A DNA stretch of 64,000 nucleotides from Myxococcales bacterium (GCA_047601445.1 JASGJH010000001.1:4672001-4736000), one strand, 5' to 3'; counted from the stretch's first letter, positions 53,808 to 56,987 are shown. Numbers and translations: made by a program. The notes: generated by a model from the letters alone, not told the origin.

Positions 53808-54854
53808 CTAACGAGTGGCGCGCATCACACCGCGCTCGGCAAAGCTGATTCCCGCGAGCACGTCGGACAGCTGCTCGAAGACCGCCTTCTGAGCGGCCGC
53901 ACCGGCGGCCAGCGGATTGAGCACGCACACGTCGACGCCTTGCTCGGCGTAAGCACGGATGCGCGCGCGTACGTGGGCCTCGTCGCCCGCAATCCCGATG
54001 GCATCGCACAGCCGCGGCGTCATGGCCTTGGCCACGCCGGCGCGGTCACCCTTCGAAAAGGCCTCCTTCACGGCCAGGGCCTCCTGCTCCATGCCTATCC
54101 ACTGGAAGAAACGGTTGTAGCCACCTACCGCCACGTAGGGCCCGAATGCCATGCGCACTACCTCGCGTCCGTGATCGATGGAAGGCAGCACGCTGACGTG
54201 GAGACGCGCTACCACTTCGAGACTGGCCGGGTCGCGCCCCGCCTCTTCGGCGCCACGCCGCACCTCGCCCAGCACCTGCTTGAGCGCGCTCTCGGGCACC
54301 ATGTTGAGCACCACGCCGTCGGCCAGCGCGCCAGCCAGGCGCAACATCTGCGGGTTGAGGGCGCCCACGAAGAGCGGCACCTCCACCTTCGACGGCAAGC
54401 GGAAGTTCTTCATGCTCAGAGTCTCGCCCGCGACCTGCACCTTCTCGCCTGCAAAGGCCTTGCGCAGCGCGCCCAGTGCCTCACGCATACGCGGGATGGG
54501 CTTGTCGTAGGGCTGCCCCGCCCAATCGCGCACGATGTTCTCGGAGGAGATGCCGAGGCCCAAGCTAAAGCGCCCCCCGGTGAGCTCGCTCAAGGTGTAG
54601 GAGCCGAGCGCGTGGATCATCACGGAGCGCGTCGCGAGCGGCAGCACGCCCATGCCGATGCGCACGCCGGGCGCCGCCTGACTGAGCGCCCCCGCGAGGG
54701 CGTAGCACTCGGCCGCGTTGACCTCGGCCAGCCAGAGTTCGTCATACCCCTTCGCGCACATCTCTTTGGCCAGGGCGACCGCGTGCTGGGCGACCGGAGG
54801 CTGGCTGGGAACCATGGGAACGGTGAGTCCGAGACGCGGGCGAAGGGCGGTCAT
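53808..54854 (-). CDS. LLM-class (luciferase-like, possibly F420-dependent) oxidoreductase
   Basis: GYDELWLAE, GGRFSLGLG, GALNPQMLRLAGALADG. Confidence 0.9.
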   Translation of the reverse strand: MTALRPRLGLTVPMVPSQPPVAQHAVALAKEMCAKGYDELWLAEVNAAECYALAGALSQAAPGVRIGMGVLPLATRSVMIHALGSYTLSELTGGRFSLGLGISSENIVRDWAGQPYDKPIPRMREALGALRKAFAGEKVQVAGETLSMKNFRLPSKVEVPLFVGALNPQMLRLAGALADGVVLNMVPESALKQVLGEVRRGAEEAGRDPASLEVVARLHVSVLPSIDHGREVVRMAFGPYVAVGGYNRFFQWIGMEQEALAVKEAFSKGDRAGVAKAMTPRLCDAIGIAGDEAHVRARIRAYAEQGVDVCVLNPLAAGAAAQKAVFEQLSDVLAGISFAERGVMRATR

Positions 54855-54961: not shown

Positions 54962-56137
54962 ATGACCTTGCCCTTCACCGTGCGGGCCCTCGATGTCCAC
55001 TCGCGCGCGCGCCGCGGCACGCTGATCACCGCCCACGGCGCGGTGGAGACGCCCGCTTTCATGGCCGTGGGTACACGCGCCACCGTGACCGGATTGACGC
55101 CGGATGATCTGCGCGCAGTGGGCGCGCAGGTGGTGCTGGGCAACACCTATCACTTGATGCTGCGCCCGGGTCCCGAGCTGTTTCGACGGGTCGGCGGCAT
55201 CCACGCGTACATGAAGTGGTCCGGCCCCGTGCTCACCGATTCGGGCGGCTACCAGATCTTCTCGCTCTCGGAGGACCGCACCATCAACGAGAAGGGTGCG
55301 CGCTTCAAGAGCTACGTCGATCAACGCTTCTATCTGCTCTCGCCCGAACGCTCCATCGAGATGCAGACGGCCATCGGCTCCGACATCATGATGGTGCTCG
55401 ACGAGTGCGTGGATTCGAACTCCGACGAGGCCCGCACGCGCGCCGCCATGGAGCGCACCCATCGTTGGGCCCTGCGCAGCTTGGCCGCGCGCACGAACCC
55501 GGCGCAGGCCCTGTTCGCCATCGTGCAGGGCGGTGTCGTGGCGTCGCTGCGCAAGGAGTCGGCGGACTTCCTGACCCAGCATCCATTCGACGGCTTCGCC
55601 ATCGGTGGACTCGCCGTGGGCGACACGCGCGCGCAGCGCGAGGAGATGACCCACTTCTCGGCGCAACTCTTGCCCGCCGAGCGTCCACGCTACCTGATGG
55701 GCGTGGGCACGCCGCCCGATTTGCTGCACGCAATTTTGGCCGGTGTGGACATGTTCGACTGCGTCCTGCCCACCCACCTCGGCTGGCAAGGCACCGGCTT
55801 CACCTCCACGGGGCGCGTACGCATCACGCGGGCTGCCAATGCCGATGCCGACGTGCCGCTCGACGCCGCCTGCAACTGCAGCACGTGCCGCACCTTCAGC
55901 CGCTCCTATTTGCACCATCTCTTCAAGTGCAGCGAGCCACTCGGACCGCGCCTCCTGTCGATCCACAACCTGCACCACTATCACAGCCTGATGGCCGAGG
56001 CGCGTGCCGCCATCGAAGCGGGCGTCTACGCGAGCTTCGCCAGGCAAAAGCTCGACGCCATCGATCGCCACGAGCACAGTGACAAGCGGCTCGGCGCCGC
56101 CTTAGCTGCAGTCGGCTCTCCAGTCGACGCGGTGTAA
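54962..56137 (+). CDS. tgt: tRNA-guanine transglycosylase family protein (divergent paralog)
   Basis: NTYHL, TDSGGYQ, LDEC, VQGG, GGLAVG, YLMGVG, DMFDCV, Zn motif CNCSTC...H. Confidence 0.9.
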   Translation: MTLPFTVRALDVHSRARRGTLITAHGAVETPAFMAVGTRATVTGLTPDDLRAVGAQVVLGNTYHLMLRPGPELFRRVGGIHAYMKWSGPVLTDSGGYQIFSLSEDRTINEKGARFKSYVDQRFYLLSPERSIEMQTAIGSDIMMVLDECVDSNSDEARTRAAMERTHRWALRSLAARTNPAQALFAIVQGGVVASLRKESADFLTQHPFDGFAIGGLAVGDTRAQREEMTHFSAQLLPAERPRYLMGVGTPPDLLHAILAGVDMFDCVLPTHLGWQGTGFTSTGRVRITRAANADADVPLDAACNCSTCRTFSRSYLHHLFKCSEPLGPRLLSIHNLHHYHSLMAEARAAIEAGVYASFARQKLDAIDRHEHSDKRLGAALAAVGSPVDAV

Positions 56138-56138
56138 C

Positions 56139-56987
56139 GTGAGCACTTCCCGCGAGTGTGAGGTCGTGATCACGCGCAGTGGCGCACATGCGATGCTGGA
56201 TCACGCTTCCGGCGAGGTCATGCACCCGGTGGTGGGTCCCCTGGTAGAGGCCGAGCAACTCTACCTGCAACCGAGCCGCCTGCGCGAACGCTTGAGCACG
56301 TCGAGCAGCGACCCGCTCGTGCTGTTCGACGTGGGCCTCGGCGCAGGCTCCAACGCGGCCCTCGCGTTTCGCACCTCCGAGGCCTTGCGCGGCCTGCGCC
56401 GTCCACTGACCATCGTGAGCTTCGAGACCTCCCTCGCAGCCTTCGCGCTGGCCGCGACCTCCGAACACCGCGCCGCGTTCGGCCTCGACGACGACGTACT
56501 GCCCGCGGCGCGCGCGCTGCTCGAGCGGGGCGAACACCGCACACCCCACACGCACTGGCGGTTGGTGCGGGGCGACGTACTCGAGACCATCCGCGCGGAA
56601 CCGGCCCAAGCTGCCGATGTGGTGTTCTGGGATCCCTTCTCGCCGCGCGCCAATCCCGCGCTCTGGACCGCGGCAGCCTTCGAAGCGCTCCACCGCGCCT
56701 GTCGCCCCGGCGTCAGCGTCCACACCTACAGCACCGCGACCGCCGTGCGCAGCGCGCTCCTGTTGGCGGGCTTCGCCGTGGGCCAAGGACCGAGCACTGG
56801 CGAAAAGGCGCAGACCACCCTGGCGGCTCTGGACGCGCGAGATCTCGCGCAACCGCTCGACCTACGTTGGCTCACCCGGCTGACGCGCTCGTCGGCGCCC
56901 TTCCCTAGTGACGCTCCGCCAGACGCCATGCAGCGCGTGCACGCGCTGGCCCAGTTCAGTCCCGCGGACGCGCGAACCAGCCCTTGA
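56139..56987 (+). CDS. MnmC-like (MnmD-domain) SAM-dependent methyltransferase
   Basis: EVMH..GP..EA, DVGLGAGSN, WDPFSPRANPALW, TYS..VRSALLLAGF. Confidence 0.85.
   Translation: MSTSRECEVVITRSGAHAMLDHASGEVMHPVVGPLVEAEQLYLQPSRLRERLSTSSSDPLVLFDVGLGAGSNAALAFRTSEALRGLRRPLTIVSFETSLAAFALAATSEHRAAFGLDDDVLPAARALLERGEHRTPHTHWRLVRGDVLETIRAEPAQAADVVFWDPFSPRANPALWTAAAFEALHRACRPGVSVHTYSTATAVRSALLLAGFAVGQGPSTGEKAQTTLAALDARDLAQPLDLRWLTRLTRSSAPFPSDAPPDAMQRVHALAQFSPADARTSP

Follow-up and report, generated by a model that had tools for sequence, protein, structure and literature searches.

A second, divergent tRNA-guanine transglycosylase paired with an MnmC2-like methyltransferase in Myxococcota: a candidate source of methyl-preQ1 in RNA

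The locus and the closest described systems

The closest described systems to the locus reported here are bacterial Tgt (TIGR00430; Z. mobilis 1q2r/1pud and E. coli 10fa-c), the methyltransferase MnmC2, a fusion of TGT and MnmC2 domains and the phage enzymes DpdA and DpdM. In Tgt, Cys158 and Val233 (Z. mobilis numbering) were described as defining the preQ1-type pocket and Glu235 as supporting a peptide flip (PMC3660597), and Arg286 was placed by the ribose-34 and phosphate-35 pockets (PMC5395182). MnmC2 methylates the nm5U34 that is made by MnmE-MnmG and acts at position 34 (PMC3527978). The fusion was catalogued in a 2023 preprint, in whose available text it occupies one clause, only among genomes with MnmA, MnmG and MnmE, and is given no function, clade analysis or split form (10.1101/2023.12.21.572861). 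In phage DNA, methyl-preQ1 (mdPreQ1) is an established base that is made by DpdM (10.1101/2023.04.13.536721). As for RNA, a 2020 review of ribonucleosides covers preQ0, preQ1, oQ, Q and derivatives with no 'mpreQ1' in its available text (PMC7694415), and the available part of a 2026 compendium does not mention myxobacteria or Bdellovibrio (PMC13602947). Our literature search, which lay mostly outside the subscription journals, found no study of the clade described below.

In this study, which was based on a window of 64,000 nucleotides of a Myxococcales genome (the whole stretch of DNA that was analysed) and on comparative genomics, we characterised two adjacent genes, here called TGT2 and MT. 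The features of this part of the window are as follows.

53808-54854, minus strand: F420-dependent LLM oxidoreductase, divergent from TGT2; TIGR03841 above cut-off
54962..56137, plus strand: TGT2, a second divergent bacterial-type tRNA-guanine transglycosylase; ATG start, TAA stop, 391 aa
56135..56141, plus strand: TAA-C-GTG junction, with a single base (56138) between the TGT2 stop and the MT start
56139..56987, plus strand: MT, a stand-alone MnmC2/DUF752-like class I SAM-dependent N-methyltransferase; GTG start, TGA stop, 282 aa
56956-57321, minus strand: double zinc-ribbon gene, convergent with MT; PF13453
57421-59480, minus strand: three tandem AIM24-family genes, beyond the zinc-ribbon gene

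Since TGT2 and MT are flanked by the divergent LLM oxidoreductase gene and the convergent zinc-ribbon gene, respectively, the unit consists of these two genes. The open reading frames and the PF05430 match agree with the description in an earlier note on this DNA of a stand-alone MnmC methyltransferase domain that starts 1 bp past the TGT stop, and in relatives the two genes are divided at this place by a short spacer, overlap or are fused through an in-frame linker. Homologues that are approximately 80% identical carry the names Polyangiales and Pendulispora, so the host may be a Polyangiales-like myxobacterium. Both genes are annotated as an ordinary tgt and mnmC; they are real and conserved, and they are mis-annotated. 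The end of the zinc-ribbon gene overlaps the end of MT on the opposite strand. The LLM oxidoreductase next to TGT2 is common only to genomes of the same genus, and the AIM24 trio was also present in two genomes of that genus.

TGT2 shares with bacterial Tgt the fold, the catalytic aspartates, the pocket, the Zn site and approximately 46-50% identity; unlike Tgt, it is a second copy in a separate clade, it is not located beside queA, it is tied to a methyltransferase, and the PTRNxRN of Tgt has become PTHLGWQ. Similarly, MT shares with MnmC2 the fold, motif I, the catalytic aspartate of the DxFxP motif, the substrate-stacking Tyr and the stand-alone form, but it is only approximately 25% identical, scores under the NF033855 cut-off, forms its own subfamily and occurs in genomes in which MnmE and MnmG were not found and nm5U34 is unavailable by the known route. 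As far as sequence allows this to be judged, the pair would resemble Tgt and MnmC2 in its working, yet it appears to lie outside both families by their tests of membership. The catalogued fusion has the same two domains as TGT2 and MT. The phage system follows the same logic, in which a transglycosylase inserts preQ1 and a methyltransferase caps the amine, and the same base is predicted; however, DpdM is a DUF3109/YkgJ-type metal protein that acts on DNA, whereas MT is a Rossmann SAM enzyme, TGT2 is a tRNA-type TGT, and, judged by PADLOC families and recurring neighbours, the pair is not a Dpd system.

Conserved catalysis and altered RNA contacts

TGT2 matched PF01702 (E 8e-141) and passed TIGR00430 with 441 bits against a cut-off of 306.75. 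The motifs that had been read as catalytic and base-pocket elements (DSGG, LDEC, QGG, GGLAVG and DMFD) were all found, as was the Zn site with the ligands C304/C306/C309/H335 (CxCxxC...H). The catalytic D93 and D266, which correspond to Asp102 and Asp280 in the Z. mobilis numbering, and the guanine/preQ1 pocket (D147, C149, Q189, G216 and V219) are intact, and the enlarged pocket of the queuine type (Val233Gly, Cys158 changed) is absent, with C149 and V219 in its place. The predicted structure (pLDDT 87) matched Z. mobilis TGT with a TM of 0.88-0.90, and a comparison with the orthologue in genome G076 showed purifying selection (dN/dS 0.045/0.81).

The altered segment was also confirmed: the usual PTRNARNG reads PTHLGWQG. 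In total, K52, E235, R286, R289 and N290 of Z. mobilis are replaced by T43, D221, H272, W275 and Q276 in TGT2, which additionally carries the clade-specific R290 and a C-terminal DRHEH. Among 80 canonical TGTs (matches from the contig scan with TGT2, which are mostly canonical), the first four of these positions are occupied by K in 79, E in 80, R in 80 and R in 80 sequences. In 239 close relatives of TGT2, the Lys52 position is T in 232 with seven gaps, the Glu235 position is D in 238 with one gap, R is found at the Arg286 position in none, and the Arg289 position is W in 237 and R in two. This near-invariance on both sides indicates that the substitutions are not chance drift.

A tree of 128 TGT sequences, which was midpoint rooted and omitted 20 of the 30 canonical sequences of the Bdellovibrionia class and 40 of the 80 of the control set, placed 71 of them in a monophyletic TGT2 clade with a FastTree support of 0.975 and a stem of 0.24, apart from canonical Tgt. 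In the E. coli numbering, D89, D143, Q187, G214, V217 and D264 are present in all 71 TGT2 sequences and C145 in 70, R270 and R273 are present in 77/77 canonical TGTs and in 0/71 TGT2, and N288 is changed to R in 68/71. K39T and E219D are limited to a closer sub-clade of 25 sequences, and the 46 more distant members retain K or R at the Lys52 site and E at the Glu235 site. The change of FMPVGT..TVK into FMAVGT..TVT, to which the earlier note had pointed, is present but is only partly informative: the A is not diagnostic, as relatives of TGT2 can also have P, T, S, V or D at that site, and the K-to-T change is real but marks only the closer sub-clade.

We take Arg286, Arg289 and Lys52 to be residues that read U35, as in the Z. 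mobilis RNA complex. The mean net charge of the segment that contains the lost arginines (268-275 in E. coli) falls from +2.0 in the canonical enzymes to 0.0/+0.65 in TGT2, while that of segment 283-293 is +2.4 and +3.0/+3.4, respectively. Within the latter, K285 and K292 are required for tRNA-stem binding in E. coli TGT (PMC13416341). Because of its intact active site and the basic 283-293 patch, TGT2 looks as though it is still catalytic and RNA-binding, with an apparently changed contact near positions 34-35.

MT matched PF05430 above the cut-off (E 6e-22) and reached 90.6 bits against NF033855 (MnmC2), which is under the cut-off of 136. Its motif I (GxGxGxN, 66-72), E96, D146, DPFSP (165-169, with the catalytic D165), N172 and Y197 are intact, and all of the cofactor and catalytic residues of MnmC2 that are named in PMC3527978 have counterparts in MT. 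By both sequence and fold, the closest solved relative was the Aquifex MnmC2 (E 1e-15), and the predicted structure (pLDDT 91) had its best fold match in 3vyw of that protein (TM 0.71-0.73). The MT subfamily (77 sequences) formed one group with a long stem of 1.27 and a support of only 0.77, which was separate in the tree from MnmC and from a second MnmC2-like set; G66, G68, D165 and W176 are constant throughout it. Whole-protein net charge did not separate the groups. As was the case for TGT2, MT is under purifying selection relative to its G076 orthologue (dN/dS 0.25/0.79).

Distribution of the pair and its genomic background

Among 151 genomes of the host's order, MT had a strong match in 28, with one further weak match set aside. 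A full TGT2 (E <= 1e-140, a threshold that would miss distant TGT2) was found in 26 of the 151, all of them among the 28 carriers, and in the other two a contig end truncates TGT2 next to MT; the two genes therefore co-occur in 28/28 carriers, and no MT without TGT2 was found in the order. TGT2 is located directly upstream of MT in 24 of the 29 strong loci, the remaining five genomes have TGT2 elsewhere in addition to a canonical copy, and a shared reading frame was not seen in these 29 loci. Eighty-three further loci, 80 of which were metagenomic, included 74 adjacent pairs, six fusions and three without a TGT. When long homologues were considered, the best 120 of 286 were all TGT-then-MT fusions, in which the named ones were Anaeromyxobacter and its kin; among the matches listed, their TGT domain was 64-75% identical to TGT2. 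The adjacency in 24/29 and 74/83 loci, together with the fusions in Anaeromyxobacter and other lineages, bears out the linkage that the earlier note had proposed to examine. Atlas clusters add Verrucomicrobiota and Spirochaetota to the range of the pair. The flanking genes differ between families and the carriers, being kin, are not independent; no third conserved neighbour, tRNA gene, riboswitch or Rfam element was found to travel with the pair. In family f16, each of five genomes (G043, G065, G116, G148 and G132; L148-L150, L154, L155) has two copies of TGT2, one that adjoins MT (PTQLASQG-type) and one elsewhere, and G137 has two complete pairs.

MT was present in 62/101 genomes of the Myxococcales order to which G362, an Archangium record, belongs. 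The 50 MT loci there, in which two places were counted twice, comprised 22 fusions, 13 adjacent pairs, three near pairs, ten unlinked genes and two at contig ends. All ten genomes with an unlinked MT have TGT2, nine of them on the same contig at a distance of 10-21 kb. Eight of the 39 MT-negative genomes were tested, and all eight have one canonical TGT only.

Evidence against a strict pairing came from the class to which G363, a Bdellovibrionia record, belongs, where MT was present in 67/80 genomes and TGT in 80/80. In these draft genomes, where TGT matches are not copy numbers, MT is present in 59 of the 61 genomes with at least two TGT matches but also in eight of the 19 with a single match, and two genomes have TGT2 without a full MT. 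Of the 30 MT loci that were examined in this class, 22 lacked a TGT within 1.5 kb, and an intact MT was absent from all 20 unfused TGT2 loci that we picked by hand; at L314, L316 and L323, TGT2 is fused to a truncated MT remnant that ends before the catalytic DxFxP motif. MnmG was found in 20/20 tested genomes of this class, so some of its MT copies may be plain MnmC2, and the pair and MnmG are both present in G361, G362 and G273. Two stand-alone clades of the MT subfamily were observed in this class (L243-L271), mostly with DFYSP or DPYSP and with no TGT nearby; the neighbours of some of these genes are presumably prfB-like or prs/pth genes, judging by their translations.

The genome of the window (G000) is a single contig with 98.7% completeness and 5.4% contamination. 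It has two PF01702 genes, and the second is the separate canonical tgt that the earlier note had suggested looking for: it follows queA at C1:666.7 kb and carries PTRNGRNG and a TVK-type motif, as canonical enzymes do. queG and yhhQ are also present, and neither queC nor queF was found genome-wide. With queA-tgt, QueG and YhhQ encoded elsewhere, this bacterium apparently does not need TGT2 to produce queuosine from preQ1 that it salvages. A QueC hit was likewise absent in 27 of the 28 carriers of the order, which implies that their preQ1 supply rests on salvage, whereas QueC was present in 17/20 genomes of the class of G363.

The MnmG model matched in 0/39 genomes of the host's order, all 28 carriers included, and in 29/29 genomes outside it. 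The sole GIDA-family match in G000 was a 448-aa gene after topA, which we take to be TrmFO-like, and in a tblastn search of this genome with full MnmG, nothing but 90 residues of that gene was matched. For MnmE, only partial GTPase matches below the cut-off were found in G000, and no MnmM was found there. Because MnmE and MnmG were not found, the known route to mnm5U is closed to MT in this lineage; the simple explanation that MT makes mnm5U, which the earlier note had named as part of its counter-case, is thus not supported. A tRNA-Leu with the anticodon AAG, which is unusual in bacteria, was called at G000:C1:3225557-3225641 (-), and no tRNA-Leu(GAG) was called. As a TGT2-linked target, tRNA-Leu(AAG) was rejected: it was found in 24/64 genomes, of which 13 belong to the 28 carriers, and tracks family rather than TGT2.

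A putative methyl-preQ1 branch and the competing explanations

The reading that we favour, with a probability of roughly 45%, is that TGT2 exchanges a G that is unserved by the canonical TGT for salvaged preQ1 and that MT N-methylates the inserted base, which would yield methyl-preQ1 in RNA. In the first step, TGT2 would replace a guanine in a stem-loop RNA, for which the anticodon loop of a tRNA is the most likely candidate, with preQ1 that the cell salvages (YhhQ is present and QueC/QueF were not found). The target G would probably lie outside the U33-G34-U35 set that is covered by the queA-linked TGT; TGT2 lacks the two arginines by ribose-34 and phosphate-35 and keeps a basic outer surface, which suggests that it probably reads the loop differently. 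In the second step, the MnmC2-like MT would transfer a methyl group from SAM to the primary amine of the preQ1 7-aminomethyl group, and its chemistry would be that of MnmC2 on 5-aminomethyl-U34. The predicted product is 7-(methylamino)methyl-7-deazaguanosine (methyl-preQ1), which would be an end product and not a substrate for extension by QueA. As selection maintains MT where MnmEG is missing and TGT2 always accompanies it, another amine is needed, and by analogy the 7-aminomethyl group of preQ1 would be the obvious acceptor: a primary aminomethyl, carried by a wobble-type base, that the neighbouring enzyme would supply.

It is also feasible, but unlikely, that the target is the ordinary set of GUN tRNAs (His, Tyr, Asp and Asn), which would be loaded by TGT2 or TGT1 and capped by MT, so that G34 would bear methyl-preQ1 in place of queuosine under some conditions. 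The pocket and the outer surface of TGT2 are canonical, the protein passes the TIGR00430 cut-off and MnmC2 acts at position 34, all of which would fit; nevertheless, both motif arginines, which are invariant in the canonical enzymes, are gone from every TGT2 in the tree, and queA and queG are retained, so the queuosine route is complete. When this variant is included, methylation of preQ1 in RNA as such seems somewhat probable.

The eukaryotic TGT accessory subunit likewise lacks these arginines, and almost every examined genome that has TGT2 also has a canonical TGT. TGT2 could accordingly be imagined as a binding or adaptor subunit, for example in a heterodimer with TGT1, that brings MT to a tRNA on which some other amine is methylated; the loss of the active-site arginines, and of Lys52 in the close sub-clade, would agree with this. 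We regard it as quite unlikely, as an adaptor would not need the catalytic aspartates and the whole guanine pocket, which are invariant in 71/71 sequences.

Quite improbable, too, is an action on free bases or nucleotides, in which deazaguanines from prey RNA would be salvaged, stored or detoxified and free preQ1 would be methylated. Arginines lost near phosphate 35 would suit a substrate without a 3' extension, and the absence of QueC from nearly all carriers of the host's order and the YhhQ of G000 are in keeping with salvage. On the other hand, the Cys158/Val233 pocket is not of the queuine type, the outer RNA-binding patch stays basic, QueC is present in most of the tested genomes of the class of G363, and methylated preQ1 is not known as a salvage intermediate. 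Salvage as an alternative, which had been put forward in the earlier note, therefore appears weaker, given a pocket that looks preQ1-type and a basic outer patch.

The null explanation, that a redundant tgt and an ordinary MnmC2 that makes mnm5U are linked only through the clustering of two anticodon-loop enzymes, is very improbable overall and, for the host's order, is largely refuted. Stand-alone MT copies do occur in MnmG-positive genomes and the fusion was listed among the MnmC2 fusions of MnmAGE genomes in the available text of the preprint (10.1101/2023.12.21.572861), but in the host's order MnmG was not matched in any carrier, G000 has no recognisable MnmE, MT occurs only with TGT2, and MT belongs to a long-stemmed subfamily of its own. 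Finally, a DNA target of the DpdA/DpdM kind that is reached with other enzymes is most improbable even though methyl-preQ1 is known from phage DNA and E. coli TGT was reported to accept DNA hairpins (PMC10103133), as TGT2 is close in identity to the tRNA TGTs, neither TGT2 nor MT matched a PADLOC family, defence genes do not recur near the pair, and MT had no phage match and no close plasmid match, the plasmids having only distant MnmC.

Returning to the insertion of preQ1 by TGT2 and its methylation by MT, the claim of a new pathway in the earlier note holds in part: the second divergent TGT and its linkage stand, but the coupling is not wholly new because the fusions were in the 2023 preprint. 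What is new, with the fusion already catalogued, is that this lineage removes the default mnm5U explanation. The host lineage is also the cleanest test, since it lacks the pathway that gives MT its known substrate, and cultured carriers exist in Pendulispora, in which the split form is expected, and in Anaeromyxobacter, in which the pair is fused. The ordinary tgt and mnmC annotation hides a distinct and widespread clade, as the proportion of genomes with MT in the order of G362 and in the class of G363 (62/101 and 67/80) demonstrates. If the reading is true, it would add a natural RNA nucleoside, a TGT with a new target specificity that would be useful for TGT-based RNA labelling tools, and an instance in which RNA modification has converged with that of phage DNA. 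More tentatively, Myxococcota, Bdellovibrionota and some Verrucomicrobiota and Spirochaetota may possess a second RNA deazaguanine branch outside the four queuosine tRNAs, which would consist of a re-targeted TGT and a co-opted MnmC2. Such a branch, if true, would be an exception to the rule by which bacterial TGTs act on U-G-U loops alone.
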